From positions 3,931 through 67,930 of the IMG/VR virus record IMGVR_UViG_3300026549_000079: 64,000 bases of DNA. One strand, given 5' to 3'. Under the pieces are notes generated by a model that made no database searches, was not told where the DNA came from, and saw nothing but the letters and a program-made list of their open reading frames with translations. Source of the stretch: a virus. Its lineage: Duplodnaviria; Caudoviricetes. Both the position numbers and the translations under genes were made by a program. This document shows positions 3,431 through 56,669 of the stretch, in pieces; within the stretch, counting starts at the first letter, position 1, and every line of letters begins with the position of its first letter.

Positions 3431-3991
3431 TTATTTTCCATTAATTTCAATATAAGTCAACTCATTAGCCATCCTTACAATACTTGCCATAGTGCTTGCA
3501 AAGAACCTTGACTGGTCGTCTGTCAAATCCCTGTCATTGATGGTAAGGGCTTCAATCTCTTCCTTTGTGAGATAAATGCCACACTCATTCAACATGGACA
3601 ATGACATAAGACCTGTCCTGATTGATGGAAGTTCGTTGTTGTATTTGTATACCATGAGTCTTTTGTCAACTTCCCACTGGTTGTCATTCGGAATTAGCTT
3701 AATTGCTTTCCCGATATGATGAAGCAGGCATACCTTGACTAGTGTTGTCTTGTCTACTTTCTGAAAATCTGGCAGAAGCTCATTAATCCTAACAGCATAA
3801 GGTGTCAATTTCTTTAGTACAATCTCAATCATTGAGCCAGGATAGGCATTTCCGTGGTCGTTAATGTTTGTAAACGACGCCTCACGGAGAGCATCCCCGT
3901 ATTTGTCAACCAACTTCTCAACATTAACGCCGCACTGTTCAACTTTTTTCATGAACAGTTCAAAATTCTTGTTCATTTCTTCGTTTGTCAT
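3431..3991 (-). CDS. HD-domain-like protein (divergent)
   Basis: LLHHIGK (HD replaced by HH), plus a downstream EALTINDRD. Start reassigned to MTNEEM at 3991 because the longer ORF crosses a terminator and a promoter. Confidence 0.55.
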   Translation of the reverse strand: MTNEEMNKNFELFMKKVEQCGVNVEKLVDKYGDALREASFTNINDHGNAYPGSMIEIVLKKLTPYAVRINELLPDFQKVDKTTLVKVCLLHHIGKAIKLIPNDNQWEVDKRLMVYKYNNELPSIRTGLMSLSMLNECGIYLTKEEIEALTINDRDLTDDQSRFFASTMASIVRMANELTYIEINGK

Positions 3992-4024: not shown

Positions 4025-4056
4025 CAAATATATGATATTTTTCCAAATAAAACAAA
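4025..4056 (-). promoter_or_regulatory. Bacteroidota sigma-A type promoter
   Basis: Minus strand TTTG-N20-TATATTTG. Confidence 0.8.
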
Positions 4057-23235: not shown

Positions 23236-23271
23236 AATATATTATTATTTTTTAATTGTTTAAATACATTA

Positions 23272-23303
23272 CAAATATAGGATATTTTTTTGAAATAACC
23301 AAA
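23272..23303 (-). promoter_or_regulatory. Bacteroidota sigma-A type promoter
   Basis: Minus strand TTTG-GTTATTTCAAAAAAATATCC-TATATTTG. Confidence 0.85.
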
Positions 23304-34526: not shown

Positions 34527-34596
34527 AACTTTTTCTTCTTTTTCTAAACATTATGTTCGTATAGTTTGATATTTTACCATTTAATTCAGGTTATTA

Positions 34597-34628
34597 CAAA
34601 TATATGGTTTTTTTCCTTAATATCCAAA
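34597..34628 (-). promoter_or_regulatory. Bacteroidota sigma-A type promoter
   Basis: Minus strand TTTG-N20-TATATTTG. Confidence 0.85.
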
Positions 34629-34636
34629 AGAAACAT

Positions 34637-34674
34637 AAAAAAAAAAAGAGTGGCTAAACACACCACTCTTTTTT
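34637..34674 (-). terminator. Intrinsic terminator closing the radical SAM operon
   Basis: GAGTGG-N9-CCACTC stem with an 11-nt U-tail on the minus strand. Confidence 0.75.
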
Positions 34675-35014
34675 AACTGTATCCATAATATCCAAATGCA
34701 ATTACCTTTTTACCGTTTGGCGTTTTATATGAATCCATGAACTTTTCATACTCAATTGCATCCCAATCATTAAAGAACTGGTCATAAGTGAGATAGTCAT
34801 ACTGAATCCAGTCTTCCTCCTTTTCTGCGTCTGATTTCTTCGCCCATTCTTGGTACTCCTTGTCGTCCAAAGGCACAAGACGTTCATAGTCTTTTGAATA
34901 GACCATCAGACCGTTCTTCCATTTTTCAAAATCACTATCATCACACATTGTTATTGAATGCGTTGAACTTGAATTGGTTTCAAACAAACCTCTGCGTACC
35001 TGAATCTTTCCCAT
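34673..35014 (-). CDS. FETNSSSTHS-motif protein (paralog 2)
   Basis: MGKIQVRRGLFETNSSSTHSITMC. Confidence 0.75.
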   Translation of the reverse strand: MGKIQVRRGLFETNSSSTHSITMCDDSDFEKWKNGLMVYSKDYERLVPLDDKEYQEWAKKSDAEKEEDWIQYDYLTYDQFFNDWDAIEYEKFMDSYKTPNGKKVIAFGYYGYS

Positions 35015-35026
35015 ATTTTCTAAGTT

Positions 35027-35545
35027 TTAGTTTCCCTTGAAATATTCATAAAGAGCATTTTTTGGCTCTTCACCAAGAATGTCATAATCATCATTATCAT
35101 TACTCGTCTCGACATATGAAGCGTCTGAGAACAAGTAATTCATAAGAAGCTCATCGTTTTCACACAGTTTAATTACTAAATCATTGTTTTCACCTCCGTG
35201 GTCAACATAAGCGAAACCTGGTGTTTTATAATATGTGGTGCCATCACTGTATTCTCCCTTGATGAGGTCTTCAAATTTTGCCTCTACACCCCAATTTTTA
35301 AGGATATTCTTAATCTTTTCAATCCAGGTGTATGGGTCGTCCATATACATCAACGACGTAAACAGATAGCTAGCTTTTGTCTCTGTATCCGTATACAGTT
35401 TATGTTTCCATCCAAATTCTCCGCCATGAAAATATAGCTCTTCTGGCAAATTTGATTTGATATCTTCTCCATTGTTACCAATAACAATCGAATGCGTCGA
35501 ACTTGAATTTGTCTCAAATAAACCTTTTCTAATCTTTGTTTTCAT
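35027..35545 (-). CDS. FETNSSSTHS-motif protein (paralog 1)
   Basis: MKTKIRKGLFETNSSSTHSIVI...GEFGW...KASYL...YVDHG. Confidence 0.75.
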   Translation of the reverse strand: MKTKIRKGLFETNSSSTHSIVIGNNGEDIKSNLPEELYFHGGEFGWKHKLYTDTETKASYLFTSLMYMDDPYTWIEKIKNILKNWGVEAKFEDLIKGEYSDGTTYYKTPGFAYVDHGGENNDLVIKLCENDELLMNYLFSDASYVETSNDNDDYDILGEEPKNALYEYFKGN

Positions 35546-35557
35546 TTTTTTCTTTAT

Positions 35558-36439
35558 TTATACGTTTCTTATTTCGTTAAACATTTCATCAATGGTCTTG
35601 TCACCAATGTCGTATCTTTCCTGGGATAGGGAATTCTTAGCAAATTTTCCATCCACCATATCAATGTAGAACGTGTAATTTCCGTCATCCCCCATATAGA
35701 ATTCCTCCCACTTATCCTCAGGCAAAAGTCTCTTCACATCAAGCTGCTTAATTGCAAGATTATCAAATGACACAAGTTTAAACCACCCATCATTAATGAT
35801 TGTAGGTAGATTATCATAAAGGTAATCACTATTTTTGGAATATTCCTCCGTATGGCTATCAAAATATGTTTTGCCCCTGCGAAGTTTCTTGAAACCAAGG
35901 ATTAAAACCTTAAGGTTATTTCCCTTCAATTGTTTAATATCGGTTTCGGTTAATATTCCGTTAATTGTATGCAAAACAACATTAGGAAACTCTTTTACTT
36001 TGCTAATGAATTCCTCATCATAATGATTGTATGAAACGCCAATGCCATAAATCAGCTTATTTTCGCTATAGTGCTTTAGAGTTTCATAGTTATTCATAAA
36101 TTGTTTTTGATGAACTGTAATATTGGCAAACACCTTCTTTCCCTTAAGGAAAACGAGAAGTCTCTCAAGGTCTGGGTGGTTCATATCATTTCCATTCAAC
36201 GCCATTTCAGTATATGGGTGTAATGTATCTATAAACCGATATTTGAATAAATCACCGTGTTTTCCTTCCTTTGTGCAACCCTCGTAACAAAACGGACAAC
36301 CAACGCTGCAATTTGATGTTATCTTAACATCAACGTTCTCTGCAAATGCTGGAACGAATGAATCCTCGTTTGTTTTTCTAATCTTTGTTCCGTCATCCAT
36401 AATACAGACGACATAATTCCCGTTTTTATAAAAATTCAT
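35558..36439 (-). CDS. Radical SAM enzyme
   Basis: VDVKITSNCSVGCPFCYEG (CxxxCxxC); no further Cys cluster, so no SPASM/Twitch domain. Confidence 0.9.
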   Translation of the reverse strand: MNFYKNGNYVVCIMDDGTKIRKTNEDSFVPAFAENVDVKITSNCSVGCPFCYEGCTKEGKHGDLFKYRFIDTLHPYTEMALNGNDMNHPDLERLLVFLKGKKVFANITVHQKQFMNNYETLKHYSENKLIYGIGVSYNHYDEEFISKVKEFPNVVLHTINGILTETDIKQLKGNNLKVLILGFKKLRRGKTYFDSHTEEYSKNSDYLYDNLPTIINDGWFKLVSFDNLAIKQLDVKRLLPEDKWEEFYMGDDGNYTFYIDMVDGKFAKNSLSQERYDIGDKTIDEMFNEIRNV

Positions 36440-36466
36440 GCTTATTTTTGAATAAAGTTTACAAAT

Positions 36467-36802
36467 TCAAACAATTCCCTTTTCTTCAAGATGCTTAATC
36501 AGATATGCAAAGTTTCCGATGGTGAACGAATCTATATCATCATAACAATATAGGACATCACACAACCAATGCCAATCAACGTCACCTTTAATGAAATCAA
36601 CGAATGTCTTCTGGATGTCTTTTTTCTCGTCTTCAACAAGCTCATCCCCGTTTTCATCATCAAATTCGCCAACCTCTTCTAGTGTGAAATCAACATCGAA
36701 TCCAAGGATTTCGTTAAGACAATATAATGTTTCCTCCCAACTGGGCTCTCTCTTTATCTGGATTCCCTTACAGAAACCATTTTCTTGCATTAAGTATTCC
36801 AT
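36467..36802 (-). CDS. Hypothetical acidic protein
   Basis: Start reassigned to MEYLMQENG. Confidence 0.55.
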   Translation of the reverse strand: MEYLMQENGFCKGIQIKREPSWEETLYCLNEILGFDVDFTLEEVGEFDDENGDELVEDEKKDIQKTFVDFIKGDVDWHWLCDVLYCYDDIDSFTIGNFAYLIKHLEEKGIV

Positions 36803-36806
36803 AATT

Positions 36807-37109
36807 CTATTCTTTTGTAAATTTGAAATAAGGTTCATAAGACTCATTAAAACCTGGCTTATCGTAGACAACCTTCCAACCTGCTTTACGATATAAATCC
36901 TCAAAATCAAGCCAATGCTTTTTATATACCGTTCCAGTGGTTATTTTTTCCATACCAGGATATCCACGTAAAATCTTGTCAACGACATCCTTTTGGGAGA
37001 TTTTTGCTTCCTCACCATCCCAAGCTTCCTTTATCATCTTATTCACAATCTCGATGACAAATTCGGGAATCTCTATCCATACATCATTTGGTCTAATTGG
37101 CTCTATCAT
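36807..37109 (-). CDS. Conserved phage hypothetical protein
   Basis: MIEPIRPNDV..EIPEFVIE..N..I...W...WLDFEDLYRKAGWKVVYDKPG. Confidence 0.7.
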   Translation of the reverse strand: MIEPIRPNDVWIEIPEFVIEIVNKMIKEAWDGEEAKISQKDVVDKILRGYPGMEKITTGTVYKKHWLDFEDLYRKAGWKVVYDKPGFNESYEPYFKFTKE

Positions 37110-37139
37110 GTTCTTAATTTTTTTCTTTAAAAGACAATA

Positions 37140-37171
37140 CAAATATATGATATTTTTTCGAAATATCCAAA
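37140..37171 (-). promoter_or_regulatory. Bacteroidota sigma-A type promoter
   Basis: Minus strand TTTG-GATATTTCGAAAAAATATCA-TATATTTG. Confidence 0.85.
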
Positions 37172-37569: not shown

Positions 37570-38181
37570 CTATACACTTTTCGTTTCTCTAAGTTTATTT
37601 TCTTCCATTATAAGAAACGTTTTAAAAAACTTCTCTTGTTCTAGAATGATATTAACAGCATCCTGTAAATCATTTGCTCTTGTGCAGAAAAATTTGCAAT
37701 CTTTATTGTAAGGCATTCTAATCATTATTTTACTTGACTTTTCCCTTTCATCCGTTATGAACTCTGGATTATCATCAATCAGCCAGTCACCTTGAATCAT
37801 CCACTTGTCTTTTGTAAAACAAATATCGTCATAAGGTATCTTGTTCTTTTCAAAGAACATTAAAGTATAATATTTGTTCTGTAAGTTAAATTGCCACGTT
37901 ACGATGACAACCTTGTGTCCTGCATCTCTTAATTTCTGAATTGCTTCTCTAACACCTGCATATGGTTCACTATACAAGAAAACTTCCTTTGCTTCCCAAG
38001 AAAAAAAGTAATCAACAGCAGTCATTCCAATTTTTTCTTTAATCCTATTGAAAACCTTTTCAACATTGTAGTCAAATATATCTTCAACCGTTATTTTCTC
38101 ATTAAACAGTTGATTATATAGTTTACACATTGTTTCATTGATGTTTCTTATAACACCGTCTACGTCAATCTTAATATTCAT
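37570..38181 (-). CDS. 5'(3')-deoxyribonucleotidase (NT5C-like, HAD superfamily)
   Basis: IDVDGV (motif I), IVT (motif II), K, LIDDNP (motif IV). Confidence 0.85.
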   Translation of the reverse strand: MNIKIDVDGVIRNINETMCKLYNQLFNEKITVEDIFDYNVEKVFNRIKEKIGMTAVDYFFSWEAKEVFLYSEPYAGVREAIQKLRDAGHKVVIVTWQFNLQNKYYTLMFFEKNKIPYDDICFTKDKWMIQGDWLIDDNPEFITDEREKSSKIMIRMPYNKDCKFFCTRANDLQDAVNIILEQEKFFKTFLIMEENKLRETKSV

Positions 38182-38193
38182 AATCTTGTTTAT

Positions 38194-38664
38194 TTAATTT
38201 TCGTCATCTTCATCATCGGAATCTCCCCACCAACTTTCGTTCCACGTAACACCAAAGTTTTCCTCTTTGTATTCAGGGAACTCCCATTCGTCATTATACC
38301 CATATACACAACCATCTTTATCTGGTTTGCAAATGAAATCAGAGTACTTTTTTGTATGTTCTTTTACAGTACGCTTTTCATTTCCTTTGTCATCACAATG
38401 TATTCTTACGGTCTTATAGGTATATTCTTCATCCGTAAGTAATTTTGGGCAATGCTTTTCAACCCATGTTCTTGGCGCTGCGACACAATAGTTCATTGAC
38501 ATATCAATCGCTCCGCACAGCACACAAAGTTTATTTTCTATGCACCATTCATTATCCTTGAACTGATTATCTATAATCCATTTTCTGAAAATTTCATCAT
38601 TTGGAAAATCTTTTCCAGCAATCCAATCGTTAAATTCAAAATATACAATCTCTTTCATAATCAT
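38194..38664 (-). CDS. Conserved hypothetical protein
   Basis: YFEFNDW...WCIENKLCV....IDMSMNYCVAAP..WV. Confidence 0.65.
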   Translation of the reverse strand: MIMKEIVYFEFNDWIAGKDFPNDEIFRKWIIDNQFKDNEWCIENKLCVLCGAIDMSMNYCVAAPRTWVEKHCPKLLTDEEYTYKTVRIHCDDKGNEKRTVKEHTKKYSDFICKPDKDGCVYGYNDEWEFPEYKEENFGVTWNESWWGDSDDEDDEN

Positions 38665-38676
38665 TTAATTTAGTTA

Positions 38677-41600
38677 TTAACCTTCATACTTTTCAATTTG
38701 CTGTATCTGAATATCATCAAACACATATCCACCAGTAGATGGCGTCATCTCTGGAAGTTTCTTAAGATAGAACCTCATGTCACTTCCAACGGTTACAATT
38801 GATGTTATACTAGCAGGAAGTTTACCTTCTTCATAAAATTCACTAATATCTGAATCGGTCAGATTATTAATTGCGTCAAGATACTTTTCATTCTCTTCTT
38901 GGAAGATTGCGTCTTCCTCTTTCTTTGTTATTTCGTTGTATTCATTAACAAGTTTTTCCCAATCAATACCGCACTCATTTACGAAAGGAGGGGTTTCATG
39001 TATTTTTTCCCAGAATGCGATTTCCTTTCGTTCTGGTGTCATAAGAGCTTCATAGGTGTCCTGGTCTTCTGGCTTGTTTGGTTGACCACTGACAAGGGAA
39101 GCTTCTGACTCGGTAAAGAATTTTCTGTCTTTTGGGTTTGTTATCAATATTTTATTTCTTATGTCAGTACTGAAACACACTAAGAGCGGCGTAATCCTCT
39201 TATTGAATTGGTCAATGTATTTCTCTACATTATATTCCAACCCTTCATATTCACTGCAAAGAATATCCTTTTCACTGTCAATGATTTCCATTGGAACAAG
39301 TTTGCAATTAAGAATAATCTCATCCTCTTCGAATGCGTTCTTGTTGATTTTCTCCTTTGCAATCTCAATCCTTGTCTTTTTTGTTTCGACACCAGAAGAA
39401 GCTGCTGCTTTGTTGTTTTCCTTATACAGCTTTTCAACATCCTTGCTTACTTCAACCTTGTTTCCATCCTTATCATACATGAAGTAATGAGTAACACGTT
39501 TCACATCTGAATGCCCCTTCTTTGTACCAGTGTTAATATAGTATACGGAATCACCGACATTTACATTAAGCCCCTCATTAATTGCAAGCTCATACCAAGC
39601 CTGTCTTGATTTCTTTGAACCAGCCTTTGTTAAGGTCTTGCAATCTTCCTTGTATTCCTTTATGGACTTCTTGATATTACCCTTTGATGCGATGTCCTTG
39701 ATTGGGATTTGGTAGTTGTAAATCTTGTCAATGTAATCATAGTAATTTGACAGGAAATGATAACCATCACCGTTTAGGAGTAGTTCAACGCCTTCGTTGA
39801 TGAATTTTTCAAGATAACCAGCCATTTTTCTTGATTTGATTGTGTTACCGACGAGTTTAATTGAACCATCAGGCAATTTATCACAATAGTTTTTCCTAGA
39901 TACGTTGCACGAGCTAGAAATATACTCATCAATGTCAAGGCCGTAACGTTGTATTCCGTTGTTATAACAGGTGTTTAGATACATGTCCTCGAATTCAGCA
40001 ACATCTGCCTCAACTCCAGTGTACGCTTTATCTTTCTTCACGTTTCTCCCTAAGCCTTTGCCTATGTATGGATGCTCATTGGTATACCTAAGTTTTTTGG
40101 GTAAACGCATGTTAAACCCATCAGTGTCTCCAACAATTGGCTCATAATTGTAGCTTTCATCATTAAGGTTAAATTTCGTGCTTATTGTTGCAAAATGACT
40201 TATCATCAGCCTAAGCATCATTCGCCCGATACATGTTGTCTTTTCGGCAGCTGTTAGCGATGCCCATGGCCATATGGCAGGATTGCCAGCACTTCCAAAG
40301 TAGCTATTACCCAATATCTTTAAAGGTAACTGTTTTTTGTCGTTTCCACTTTTTTCTGATTTCCAATATGCTATTTCTTCTTTAATTTTATGTTTCTCAG
40401 ATTCGTCAGCAGTTTGGAGTTTTTCTTTTAGTTCTTCCACTTTCGCACCAGCCTCGCCTTTTAATTGCTTATATTTTTCACGTTGAGATAAAACGAAATT
40501 TAGCATTTGGTTAAGAACGCCAGTTTCATCAACCTCGTTGTCTATATTCCAAGTTAATATGATTGAAGGATACAATGAATTGAAATCCAATTTGGCCTGT
40601 TGGCCAATGGCCCCCGTTACAAGGAGCCTCGAAAGTCCTCCCGTGAAGCGTTTTTTTATGCCTAATCCTGGAACCACGAGGTCATTCTCATACGACCACG
40701 CAAGCATGATAAGCTTCCATATACCAGCAGTACCCATTGTACATGCGCGTGAGAATGTTGTAGGTAGCAACTTACCAACAAGGAAGTTTGATTCGTTAAG
40801 TTTCTCCTCCACCTTGTCAGTTTCCCATACGTCATCGAGCAGGTATCTTTCCACGATATAGTGTCCAGACACCATTTCATAGCCTTCTTCCAATGGTCGT
40901 TCAGACGAAACCTTGTACCAGTCACCATTTTCGTCATTGAATGCAAAAACCTTATCATTTATAGCCCATGTCTTGGTAATCTTATCACCAGGAACGTATA
41001 CACGGTTTTCTTTTTGAAGATTAAGGTACTTGGTGACATATTTCAGGTTGGATTTCTTCATGTTTGAGTCGATTGCCTGGGCACGTCTTGCAGCATGTAA
41101 CGAATCAAGCACGATATGTCCCCATATAATGGTGGGCTTGAAATATTCAACCTCTCCACCAAGTTTAAGCACCGTTTCCTTATTCTTCTTATAGATTGGG
41201 TGTTTGAAATATTTAAGACTTAATTCTTTAAGCGGATATCCAAGTATGTCACATCTTGTGATGATGAAATCCCAGTCGAAGTTCTCTGAGTTATGTCCGA
41301 CAATCGTATCTGGCTTTAGTTCCGATAATATCCTAATAAACGTATCAATCGCCTCAATCTCAGATTTATTCTTTTCTTCTTCTGTATTTCCTTCTACAGA
41401 CAACAATCTTTCAAAACCGTGGTTTGTCCTTATACCAATCTGTTCAATTCTGTGTATTTGGGGATTAAGACCCTGTGTCTCAAGGTCGAAGAAACACCTG
41501 TTAAGGTCGTTATAATTCTCATATCCTTTAAATAGACGTTTTCCAGTTGAAATCATAAACTGTTCAACTGGGCTGACTGATAGATAATCTTTATTGGAGC

Positions 41601-42030
41601 TTCCTTGTGTTTCGCCTTTTTTCTTTCTATTATATATAGGAACACCACCTTCGTTGAAGAATTGCAGGAAACGTTGGTATGTCATTGCTCTTTTGGCGAA
41701 GAACATAAACTTATATCCGTCCTTGATTCTCTCATCACAATGTTCTTCATCAACGATGTTAAGCTTCTTGACACCAATACCATAAGAGTGCATTTTATTC
41801 TTCAGCTCGTTCCTATTTCCTTCAAACAGGCTTGTTGCCGCATTCAGCTTTACCCACACGAAAGGTTTGAACGGTTCTTTCTTGATTCTCTTTTCACCGT
41901 TTTCGTTGATGTAGATAATGCTTGCAGAATCACTCTGATAGTCACACTCAATGGTAATAATCCTTTCCATTGGGTCGCTTCCGTTAAGGAAGTCGTTTAC
42001 TTTTTCTGTTGATATATTATTAAAATTCAT
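38677..42030 (-). CDS. Family B DNA polymerase with 3'-5' exonuclease
   Basis: Exo motifs FDLET, HNSENFD and YLLDD; Pol motifs DFNSLYPS, KILGNSYFG and GDTDG. Start reassigned to MNFNNI (42030) because the promoter lies inside the longer ORF. Confidence 0.95.
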   Translation of the reverse strand: MNFNNISTEKVNDFLNGSDPMERIITIECDYQSDSASIIYINENGEKRIKKEPFKPFVWVKLNAATSLFEGNRNELKNKMHSYGIGVKKLNIVDEEHCDERIKDGYKFMFFAKRAMTYQRFLQFFNEGGVPIYNRKKKGETQGSSNKDYLSVSPVEQFMISTGKRLFKGYENYNDLNRCFFDLETQGLNPQIHRIEQIGIRTNHGFERLLSVEGNTEEEKNKSEIEAIDTFIRILSELKPDTIVGHNSENFDWDFIITRCDILGYPLKELSLKYFKHPIYKKNKETVLKLGGEVEYFKPTIIWGHIVLDSLHAARRAQAIDSNMKKSNLKYVTKYLNLQKENRVYVPGDKITKTWAINDKVFAFNDENGDWYKVSSERPLEEGYEMVSGHYIVERYLLDDVWETDKVEEKLNESNFLVGKLLPTTFSRACTMGTAGIWKLIMLAWSYENDLVVPGLGIKKRFTGGLSRLLVTGAIGQQAKLDFNSLYPSIILTWNIDNEVDETGVLNQMLNFVLSQREKYKQLKGEAGAKVEELKEKLQTADESEKHKIKEEIAYWKSEKSGNDKKQLPLKILGNSYFGSAGNPAIWPWASLTAAEKTTCIGRMMLRLMISHFATISTKFNLNDESYNYEPIVGDTDGFNMRLPKKLRYTNEHPYIGKGLGRNVKKDKAYTGVEADVAEFEDMYLNTCYNNGIQRYGLDIDEYISSSCNVSRKNYCDKLPDGSIKLVGNTIKSRKMAGYLEKFINEGVELLLNGDGYHFLSNYYDYIDKIYNYQIPIKDIASKGNIKKSIKEYKEDCKTLTKAGSKKSRQAWYELAINEGLNVNVGDSVYYINTGTKKGHSDVKRVTHYFMYDKDGNKVEVSKDVEKLYKENNKAAASSGVETKKTRIEIAKEKINKNAFEEDEIILNCKLVPMEIIDSEKDILCSEYEGLEYNVEKYIDQFNKRITPLLVCFSTDIRNKILITNPKDRKFFTESEASLVSGQPNKPEDQDTYEALMTPERKEIAFWEKIHETPPFVNECGIDWEKLVNEYNEITKKEEDAIFQEENEKYLDAINNLTDSDISEFYEEGKLPASITSIVTVGSDMRFYLKKLPEMTPSTGGYVFDDIQIQQIEKYEG

Positions 42031-42091
42031 ATACAATAAAACTTTAAAGTTAGTTAAAGGCGCACAAGTGACACCATCACATATTTTGGTA

Positions 42092-42123
42092 CAAAAATAT
42101 GGATAATATTTGAATAAAACAAG
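42092..42123 (-). promoter_or_regulatory. Bacteroidota sigma-A type promoter of the DNA polymerase gene
   Basis: Minus strand CTTG-N20-TATTTTTG. Confidence 0.65.
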
Positions 42124-42134
42124 CATTCTCTTAA

Positions 42135-42142
42135 TATTTATA
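42135..42142 (+). promoter_or_regulatory. TATTTATA motif (putative late promoter)
   Basis: 43 nt upstream of the first plus-strand gene; recurs before late genes. Confidence 0.5.
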
Positions 42143-42184
42143 GAGAAAAAACAGCTTATGAAAATTGTTAGGAGGTAATGTTTT

Positions 42185-42988
42185 ATGATATTATATGTGA
42201 ATAATGATAAGGTAAAGAGGGTTTACATTAATGAGTCTCAGGCGATGGTGTTAAATGAGGCTGGATTTTATCGGAGAAAAAAAGAAGAACCAGTCTATTA
42301 TTCCATGGATGACGACATAAGATTATCCGAAGACCCCTTTGCAAGGATTGAAAAAGAAAAACAGAGCGGAAAGCCTAGAAATTTTGCAATCGAAAGAAAT
42401 GGGAAGCAATACTGGGTAAGTCGTTCTTCTACAATATCCCTATATGTTTTTTGCAAAGATGAAAATGGTGAATGGAATTTACTTGTAAGCCAAAGAGGTA
42501 AAAAAATGCAATATGGTGGAAAATGGAATGTCGTTGCTGGTTTTTTGGATTACGGTGAGACACTCGAAGATGCTGCCGTGAGAGAATGCTATGAAGAGTG
42601 TGGTGTGAACATAAAAGGAAAGAAGTTAATAAGTTGTGGCACCAATTCTAGTGAACTATATGGTGCAGTAAACCATAAGTTTTCTTGTATCCTGGATGGC
42701 ACCACTGTGAAATATCCACCATCAATGGAGCATTGTGAAGGATATGGTACGGATATGCAGGAAGTTCAAAATGTTATGTGGATACCAATTAGTAAACTAG
42801 ACACCCTGAATATCAGAGATAGCCAAAAACGAAATGCAAAAGAGTTGATTTCCAGACTCGCTAGTGACGAAGCCGACTATCCAGATTCTTATAATGAACT
42901 CCTTAAAAAGCTATATGGAATGTTCGTATCAGGCGAATTATCAAATGATAAATATATGACTATTGTCAACATATTAAAGAAAAAATAG
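42185..42988 (+). CDS. Nudix hydrolase with processing-like leader
   Basis: Nudix box GFLDYGETLEDAAVRECYEECGV; N-terminal YINESQ..VLNEAG. Confidence 0.85.
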   Translation: MILYVNNDKVKRVYINESQAMVLNEAGFYRRKKEEPVYYSMDDDIRLSEDPFARIEKEKQSGKPRNFAIERNGKQYWVSRSSTISLYVFCKDENGEWNLLVSQRGKKMQYGGKWNVVAGFLDYGETLEDAAVRECYEECGVNIKGKKLISCGTNSSELYGAVNHKFSCILDGTTVKYPPSMEHCEGYGTDMQEVQNVMWIPISKLDTLNIRDSQKRNAKELISRLASDEADYPDSYNELLKKLYGMFVSGELSNDKYMTIVNILKKK

Positions 42989-56636: not shown

Positions 56637-56669
56637 TTTGTTTTTTTAAAGGAATTTTTAATATATTTG
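56637..56669 (+). promoter_or_regulatory. Bacteroidota sigma-A type promoter of the second endonuclease gene
   Basis: TTTG-N21-TATATTTG; preceded by GATATTTATT (TATTTATT core at 56619-56626). Confidence 0.65.

Follow-up and report, generated by a model that had tools for sequence, protein, structure and literature searches.

A radical SAM enzyme and N-terminally tagged acidic proteins form a two-part module that is very common among phages

The subject of this analysis is a 64,000-nucleotide stretch of phage DNA (hereafter the window; positions 3,931 to 67,930 of IMG/VR record IMGVR_UViG_3300026549_000079, a 68-kb phage-genome fragment), in which an operon of five minus-strand genes encodes a radical S-adenosylmethionine (SAM) enzyme and two proteins that begin with the same sequence motif, the tag. 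What is conserved of this operon is a phage module of two parts, namely a compact single-cluster ([4Fe-4S]) radical SAM enzyme and 1 to 10 dedicated, strongly acidic client proteins, and the data favour a system of enzyme and tag dedicated to each other. In the most likely mechanism, to which we give about an even chance of being correct, the radical SAM enzyme would bring about the maturation of the tag. The observations behind it are the genomic linkage of tag and enzyme, their fusions, the strict N-terminal position of the tag, its conservation at the protein level, the radical SAM fold and its relatives, and the co-transcription of client and enzyme in the Microcystis phage Ma-LMM01. While the module is very common among phages, full-text literature searches (for the motif, for phage radical SAM enzymes, and for Lak phages, Ma-LMM01 or phiYS40 in combination with radical SAM) revealed no description of it, in agreement with an earlier note on this DNA that knew of no assigned function.

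Within the operon, the gene for the enzyme (293 residues; 35558..36439, minus strand) is followed by those for an L-type tagged protein (172 residues, isoelectric point (pI) 4.6, tag MKTKIRKGLFETNSSSTHSI; 35027..35545, minus strand) and an S-type tagged protein (113 residues, pI 4.6, tag MGKIQVRRGLFETNSSSTHSI, TAA stop; 34673..35014, minus strand). Both tagged proteins carry the identical sequence GLFETNSSSTHSI, and their likeness is confined to the first 26-28 residues: BLASTP aligned them just over residues 3-28 and 2-27, respectively (15/26 identical, E 3e-9), and in a profile-profile comparison of the two families, the first 28 columns aligned and nothing beyond. This bears out the earlier description of two otherwise dissimilar proteins with an N-terminal identity, although the term paralogs, which had been used for them, has to be given up, since neither method detected a relation beyond the tag.

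The consensus of 321 distinct tags is M-K-[KR]-Q-[IV]-R-x-x-[VTI]-F-E-T-N-S-S-S-x-H-[SA]-[LI], in which the Arg (99%), Phe (97%), Thr (97%), Asn (99%), His (99%) and the three serines (each within 97-100%) are nearly invariant, and a Met is found 8 or 9 residues ahead of the Phe in approximately 93%. Judged from these sequences, the motif is shared far beyond chance. At each of the three serines, TCN and AGY codons are comparably frequent, and the Arg is encoded by AGR as well as CGN; therefore, the tag is conserved as protein and not as DNA or RNA. Tags from distant cultured phages (Rhodothermus phage RM378, Thermus phage phiYS40 and Vibrio phage D479) narrow the universal core to R-x4-[T/S]-N-S-S-S, with the Glu and the His being clade-specific. 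The variants (STNSSSSH in RM378, ATNSSSSH in the Salmonella phage Arash, MTNSSSAS in phiYS40 and VSNSSSSSF in D479) follow the lineages of the enzyme, and L- and S-type tags of the same locus share 14.39/20 identities compared to 13.21/20 in shuffled pairs, a comparison that is not corrected for shared ancestry. In one locus (L129:4755-7100), the degenerate tags FETNSSHEH, FETNSSTQH and FETSSSSED are found among those of an array of five or six tagged genes; the enzyme gene is not nearby but is found on another contig of that genome, and the degenerate tags may reflect relaxed constraint or decay.

Tag and enzyme are linked in both directions. Among 80 IMG/VR loci fetched via the S-type protein together with Ma-LMM01, the radical SAM gene was present in every one (81/81), mostly adjacent to the tagged genes and usually 50 to 1000 bp away. 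A further 80 tag-anchored loci were taken from prokaryote assemblies, mostly contigs of 100 to 170 kb from metagenome-assembled genomes (MAGs) and including Eubacterium plexicaudatum, Acetivibrio ethanolgignens and a Breznakiella homolactica chromosome. The enzyme gene was found in 68 of these. Contig ends truncate 7 of the 12 loci that lack it, and for 3 of the remaining 5, it is encoded elsewhere in the same genome. Anchoring the search on the enzyme revealed 1 to 5 tagged open reading frames (ORFs) within 6 kb in 77/79 phage loci, the remaining two being truncated. Tagged proteins without a radical SAM gene, which would have spoken against the co-occurrence suggested earlier, are thus absent from the phage set and a small minority in the other. 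Phage loci carry 1 to 6 tagged genes, and up to 10 were counted in two MAG contigs. No other neighbouring family is conserved, each occurring in at most 25 of 224 surveyed loci, and neither a protease nor an exporter accompanies the module in this survey. As regards the earlier proposal that the tag serves as a recognition element or substrate, the existence of a dedicated tag linked to this radical SAM clade has been substantiated, while its covalent modification is a step that we infer.

Some neighbours of the module deserve mention in their own right. Genes for Thg1-like tRNA-His guanylyltransferases and a PurA/PurZ-like adenylosuccinate synthetase lie within a few kb of it in related phage loci, as does a HisRS-like gene in Ma-LMM01 (L186:9218-10042, L151:12199-12920, L005:14402-15511 and L001:3971-4771), and none of the three is consistently linked to it. 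In a Christensenellaceae MAG (L137:2398-5200), two tagged genes in a chromosome-like context stand beside genes for a DUF5131 protein (PF07505, E 7e-39) and a GNAT acetyltransferase, with no radical SAM gene in the fetched stretch; the same genome encodes the enzyme elsewhere.

The protein bodies behind the tag belong to two large families and approximately 30 small ones. At the level of 90%-identity clusters, 541 L-type and 1538 S-type homologues were detected, none with a Pfam domain, in a collection that also contained 4766 homologues of the enzyme. Likewise, Pfam identified no domain in 29 representatives of the tagged body families, and searches of all operon proteins against Pfam, NCBIfam and PHROGs returned no informative family. 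L-type bodies are marked by the motifs GEFGW(E), YVDH, (S/G)NDN and a C-terminal KGN, and S-type bodies by W..G and a C-terminal FGYYG that is not common to the other tagged families. Profiles built from the bodies alone matched almost solely tagged ORFs (156/159 for the L-type and 186/196 for the S-type), and the untagged matches were mostly start-codon or frameshift artefacts; therefore, tag and bodies form a closed system. Furthermore, all body families are strongly acidic and rich in aromatic residues, with a median pI of 4.36 and a net charge of -12 per 100 residues, compared to a pI of 5.5 and a charge of -2.4 for neighbouring ORFs of similar size.

The AlphaFold2 (AF2) model of the L-type protein is confident overall (predicted local distance difference test (pLDDT) 90, predicted template modelling score 0.86), but residues 1-12 have a pLDDT below 50 and the first strand begins at residue 16, so that the most conserved stretch of the protein is the sole part that is not placed in the fold. 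Foldseek found nothing in the PDB at E<=0.001, the best VIA-align match among 48,161 chains reached a Z of 2.3, and the search against BFVD returned uncharacterised family members as well as a weak match to a 461-residue 'Radical_SAM domain' phage protein, which may represent another fusion. On the strength of the model, the L-type partner would have a fold without a solved counterpart. A structural lead from the ESM Atlas to proteins with a Tad2-like domain (template modelling score 0.61 by query and 0.43 by target) was dropped, as no Tad2 structure appeared in the PDB searches, and PF11195 was absent near the module in the 5 records checked for it.

These results bear on two readings in which the tag would act without being a client sequence. 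In the first, FETNSSSxH would be a catalytic or metal-/phosphate-binding loop of small enzymes that work independently of the radical SAM protein, their linkage reflecting a shared pathway or co-regulation. The wealth of potential ligands and nucleophiles in the motif (E, T, N, S, H), the first beta-strand of the body directly after it, the further conserved polar motifs of L-type bodies and the few tagged loci without a nearby radical SAM gene would all suit such a loop. However, convergence or retention of active sites would not explain why the motif recurs in approximately 30 unrelated body families at a constant spacing from the N-terminus, the near-absolute two-way linkage to one enzyme family and the fusions described below would be left aside, and confidence in the L-type model is low nowhere but in the region of the motif; we consider this reading improbable. 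In the second, which had been raised by the earlier note, the Ser-Ser bond of the tag would cleave itself, whether or not the radical SAM enzyme assists, and thereby give rise to a pyruvoyl cofactor at the N-terminus. Pyruvoyl enzymes cleave at X-Ser bonds, and an invariant serine triplet near the start of a folded body would fit this chemistry. Yet the known formation of the cofactor is autocatalytic and needs no radical SAM enzyme, which leaves both linkage and fusions without a reason; no sequence similarity to pyruvoyl families (HDC, PSD, AdoMetDC, PanD, PdaD) was found, nor did one of them appear among the fold matches listed for the L-type model, whose best VIA-align Z for any chain was 2.3; and cleavage would remove the conserved Arg and the basic N-terminus, which are strongly selected. 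We therefore regard pyruvoyl autoprocessing as very unlikely. Several other candidates for the motif, namely an HAD DxDxT loop, a flavodoxin phosphate loop, the bacterial N-glycosylation sequon D/E-x-N-x-S/T, NPTH autocleavage and Ntn-hydrolase processing, gained no tool support, and the Glu that they require is not universal.

Cultured and distant carriers extend the linkage and add fusions to it. Ma-LMM01 and its relatives share the gene order gp130 (tagged L-type), gp129, gp128 (the enzyme, 34% identical). In RM378, p106 (MKAFIRFGLSTNSSSSHSI.., with the motif DFGWE) is located two genes after the enzyme p108; in phiYS40, the tagged gp162 (..VRLTSMTNSSSAS..) abuts the enzyme gp161; and D479 encodes a 133-residue protein starting with MKIRNGFVSNSSSSSF at a distance of 1.4 kb upstream of a weakly related radical SAM-like gene. 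The Arash protein gp146c (annotated as 'methyltransferase') unites in one chain the tag IRYGFATNSSSSHS, an L-type body with the motifs GYGWD, YIDHES and GGNDN, and the enzyme, and four more fusions of tag, L-type body and radical SAM enzyme were found among the enzyme representatives (P0392, P0419, P0436 and P0459). A junction Met is missing from all five proteins, so that the latter four do not stem from read-through. The L-type protein is the ancestral partner of the enzyme, to which it is at times fused.

The main rival to tag maturation holds that the tagged proteins are subunits of a heteromeric radical SAM enzyme, in which the N-terminal peptide docks and may supply polar ligands or a hydrogen-atom relay, while the bodies select a third substrate (a nucleotide, a nucleic acid, a small molecule or a host protein); L-type protein and radical SAM enzyme would then form the core holoenzyme, with the other tagged proteins as alternative specificity subunits. 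This would account for the recurrence of L-type fusions, with both parts 1:1 in cis, and for the retention of the L-type in the most distant phages (Ma-LMM01, RM378 and Arash), and it suits a tag whose polar, near-invariant residues resemble a catalytic motif as well as an L-type body with invariant DH and NDN motifs of its own. S-type bodies of approximately 100 residues without a conserved pocket would, however, be poor candidates for conferring specificity; a single enzyme can be accompanied by as many as 10 different tagged proteins, which are more easily understood as clients; and no third conserved or substrate-related gene stands alongside the module. We regard the heteromeric enzyme as possible but doubtful.

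In the infection transcriptome of Ma-LMM01, whose genes are the only homologues with such data, gp128, gp129 and gp130 are all assigned to 'Cluster 2, B5' (PMC5780444, supplementary file 4), a middle class that also comprises replication, recombination and nucleotide-metabolism genes, and a middle promoter was mapped before gp130 (PMC5780444). The common class and the position of the promoter support the co-transcription of client and enzyme, and the middle expression of these homologues qualifies the label 'early' that had been given to the operon. The same data weigh on the idea that the tag is a targeting signal, by which proteins of diverse kinds would reach the capsid or a protease, with cleavage after the Glu. 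T4 internal-protein loci are arrays of diverse small proteins with only a short common N-terminal sequence, and the stretch h-F-E|T of the tag resembles the L/I-x-E site of the prohead protease. Nevertheless, a targeting signal would explain neither the linkage to the radical SAM enzyme nor the fusions; the tags of RM378, Arash, phiYS40 and D479 retain TNSSS but have no Glu; and in Ma-LMM01, the homologues belong to the middle phase, together with replication genes, and not to the late one. Moreover, Arash gp146 is not listed among the 116 proteins detected in the virion (PMC10585845, Table 2), so this reading appears extremely unlikely. Taken together, the independent loop, pyruvoyl formation and capsid targeting explain much less of the data.

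In the enzyme, the cysteines of the motif C44-x3-C48-x2-C51 are invariant in an alignment of 25 diverse homologues, with no further conserved cysteine, and the window protein has no cysteine beyond residue 55 and hence no SPASM or twitch motif. A three-strand mini-domain at the N-terminus (YKNGNY..DGTKI) is highly conserved (Y4, G7, N8, G17, T18), and the C-terminal domain is cysteine-free with conserved acidic residues (YMGDDG..Y.D). The SAM-binding motif reads E-h-A-h-GGG in most homologues, E-M-A-L-N-G-N-D in the clade of the window and canonical GGGEP in Arash. The protein matches phrog_16999, 'Fe-S oxidoreductase', with an E value of 2.6e-35. Pfam PF04055 scored E 0.77 and 10.4 bits, below the gathering cut-off of 29.5, and the family profile gave weak matches to many solved radical SAM cores in the PDB (best E 0.0085). 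Among 50%-identity representatives, 4257 relatives were found at E<=1e-3 and 938 at E<=1e-30. Some homologues contain inteins with homing-endonuclease domains at two different conserved sites, one directly ahead of the third Cys of CxxxCxxC (P0373) and one inside the SAM-binding motif, between E-h-A and GGG (P0411), and similar two-piece matches were seen for P0404, P0414 and P0466.

The AF2 model of the enzyme (pLDDT 91) displays a clear radical SAM partial TIM-barrel core, with VIA-align Z scores of 12-19 against many solved radical SAM enzymes. The best matches are SkfB (Z 18.6, 262 residues aligned, root-mean-square deviation 3.5) and SuiB (Z 17.8, 276 residues), followed by EpeE (15.6), a viperin-like enzyme (14.8), BlsE (14.8) and ChlB (14.5), and then by the anaerobic sulfatase-maturating enzyme (anSME; 14.2), PqqE (14.2) and CteB (13.6); Foldseek agrees on these relatives. 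The members of the top group, which stand out from all others by approximately 2-3 Z units, modify ribosomal peptides, and the model thus places the phage enzyme nearest to peptide- and protein-modifying radical SAM enzymes. That these nearest relatives all act on the peptide they bind is a further point against tagged proteins as mere subunits.

The best full-length structural matches are SPASM/twitch maturases of ribosomally synthesized and post-translationally modified peptides (RiPPs), such as SkfB, SuiB-SuiA, CteB, EpeE/YydG and PqqE. In these systems, too, the gene for the enzyme has one or more substrate genes next to it, and the substrates have a conserved N-terminal recognition sequence in common. 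The phage enzyme differs, however, in lacking the auxiliary-cluster cysteines and a full-size RiPP recognition element domain, its partners are folded proteins of 100 to 320 residues and not short precursor peptides, and the phage-borne module has no accompanying protease or exporter. Furthermore, the conserved part of the phage partners is likely the site of the reaction as well, and their variable part is a whole domain. With respect to client size, anSME/AtsB and the sulfatases are closer, since there a single radical SAM enzyme modifies a Ser (or Cys) within a short conserved motif of several whole-protein clients, and anSME is a clear structural match (Z 14.2). Here, the difference lies in the motif, R-x4-[TS]-N-S-S-S at the extreme N-terminus instead of (C/S)-x-(P/A)-x-R, which is absent from the tags, in clients without a sulfatase domain or known fold, and in an enzyme without the two auxiliary clusters.

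A third parallel is provided by glycyl-radical activases (PflA-PflB, NrdG-NrdD, GrcA), in which the target of a small single-cluster radical SAM enzyme is a flexible stretch at the end of a folded partner. The phage partners are small and match no solved fold, and the tags contain neither a conserved glycine nor the RVxG[FWY] motif: their sole glycine, at position -2, is present in 51%, and a glycyl-radical reading was rejected on this ground. These activases are not among the top structural matches of the phage enzyme, to which they may nonetheless be comparable. The nearest concept in print is that of Kaur, Burroughs, Iyer and Aravind 2020 (PMC7159879), who predicted for VMAP/FtsH ternary conflict systems that a radical SAM/SPASM enzyme modifies variable proteins or peptides with a conserved terminal motif. 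This is nonetheless a different module, with a conserved piece that is C-terminal (FxSxx and others), a SPASM domain and a bacterial vWA-MoxR context.

Tag maturation is favoured because a fixed, flexible and invariant N-terminal peptide is found on many unrelated bodies, because its two-way linkage with one enzyme family is near-absolute, because its variants track the lineages of the enzyme, and because the latter is akin to peptide-modifying radical SAM enzymes. We infer that tag and enzyme touch each other and that a change is made to the tag, as well as the residue that it affects and the role of the system in phage biology. By this mechanism, the N-terminal peptide of a client, which is flexible, would enter the radical SAM active site. 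The basic start of the tag (K..R) would serve for recognition, and the [T/S]-N-S-S-S stretch would be the site of hydrogen-atom abstraction by the 5'-deoxyadenosyl radical. A covalent change left on the tag, for example serine oxidation, a cross-link or epimerisation, would render the client mature, and the modified tag could complete a binding or catalytic site together with the conserved polar pocket of the L-type (W, DH, NDN).

Several points weigh against this mechanism. The enzyme lacks the auxiliary clusters by which most of its peptide-modifying relatives finish their reactions, and the tag, with its nine near-invariant polar residues, resembles an active site or a ligand-binding motif more than it does a passive substrate. 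The fusion of a substrate to its enzyme is unusual, and stable subunits are a better fit for the fused proteins. In addition, the enzyme is not detectable for two tagged loci, both in incomplete genomes, and one bacterial locus pairs tagged genes with the DUF5131 protein and not with a radical SAM enzyme. A bolder form of the mechanism, which we regard as unlikely, is that the enzyme turns N-S-S-S into a protein-derived reactive group and thereby arms the fast-diversifying acidic phage proteins as enzymes or as covalent inhibitors of host factors. Candidates for this group are a formylglycine-type aldehyde, whose formation would then not require auxiliary clusters, and a stable radical of the backbone; if this reading were true, it would amount to a new class of protein cofactor, encoded by phages and installed by radical chemistry.

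The remaining elements of the operon were found as the earlier note had described them, namely a promoter, two small genes, the radical SAM enzyme without SPASM, the two tagged proteins and a terminator. The five genes lie between a promoter-like box of 34 nucleotides directly upstream (TTTGGATATT-N12-CATATATTTGTA; 37138..37171, minus strand) and a strong intrinsic terminator (13-bp stem, 7-nucleotide loop and T-run; 34642..34674, minus strand) that overlaps the TAA stop of the last gene. An exact second copy of the box is located just past the terminator (34595-34628), and a third, at 23270-23303, deviates from it at 2 positions. These three are the copies in the window, each of them on the minus strand, compared to 0 expected by chance. 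The looser pattern TTTG-N19-21-TAnnTTTG occurs 5 times in the window against 1.7 expected, with looser copies of the box at 4025-4056 and 56637-56669. The box matches the -33 TTTG / -7 TAnnTTTG layout of Bacteroidetes primary-sigma promoters. A Bacteroidetes-type box agrees with the origin of the window, as the radical SAM gene is 67% identical at the DNA level to that of Prevotella Lak megaphages; the phage of the window is a Lak-like giant phage. The operon promoter looks host-type, and the copies of the box probably mark the starts of phage operons that depend on the host RNA polymerase.

The two small genes, which the earlier note counted as part of the operon, are lineage-specific and outside the conserved module: tblastn found matches to either in 0/81 related loci. 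Small gene 1 (36807..37109, minus strand) encodes 100 residues from its ATG and has a weak match to phrog_9698 (E 0.005), and small gene 2 (36467..36802, minus strand) encodes an acidic protein of 111 residues without a match in Pfam, PHROG or NCBIfam. The former ends in a TAG at 36807-36809, a codon that is reported to be reassigned in Lak-type phages. Reading through it would add just 13 further codons before a TAA, so that the structure of the operon is unaffected, and none of the three core genes contains an in-frame TAG. The surroundings are a replication and nucleotide-metabolism region (37570-42988), with genes for an NT5C-type deoxynucleotidase (37570-38181), a family-B DNA polymerase (38677-42126) and, on the opposite strand, a NUDIX protein (42185-42988). 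The position of the module among these genes, like the expression of its Ma-LMM01 counterpart alongside such genes, would be in line with the rival reading of the tagged proteins as subunits that select a third substrate.

If the tag is modified, the module would constitute a large and unstudied phage protein-maturation system, with more than 2000 clusters of tagged proteins at 90% identity. It would extend radical SAM post-translational chemistry to whole-protein clients of a minimal single-cluster enzyme and provide a first functional handle on 'dark' acidic phage proteins of unseen fold. Its carriers range from 540-kb gut Lak megaphages to cyanophages, thermophilic phages and a Salmonella phage, and the cultured ones among them (Thermus phiYS40, Rhodothermus RM378, Microcystis Ma-LMM01 and Salmonella Arash) make the module directly testable. 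The tagged proteins vary in copy number like arms-race genes, and because they are acidic, variable in copy number and diversified, the role of the clients may lie in host takeover or counter-defence.

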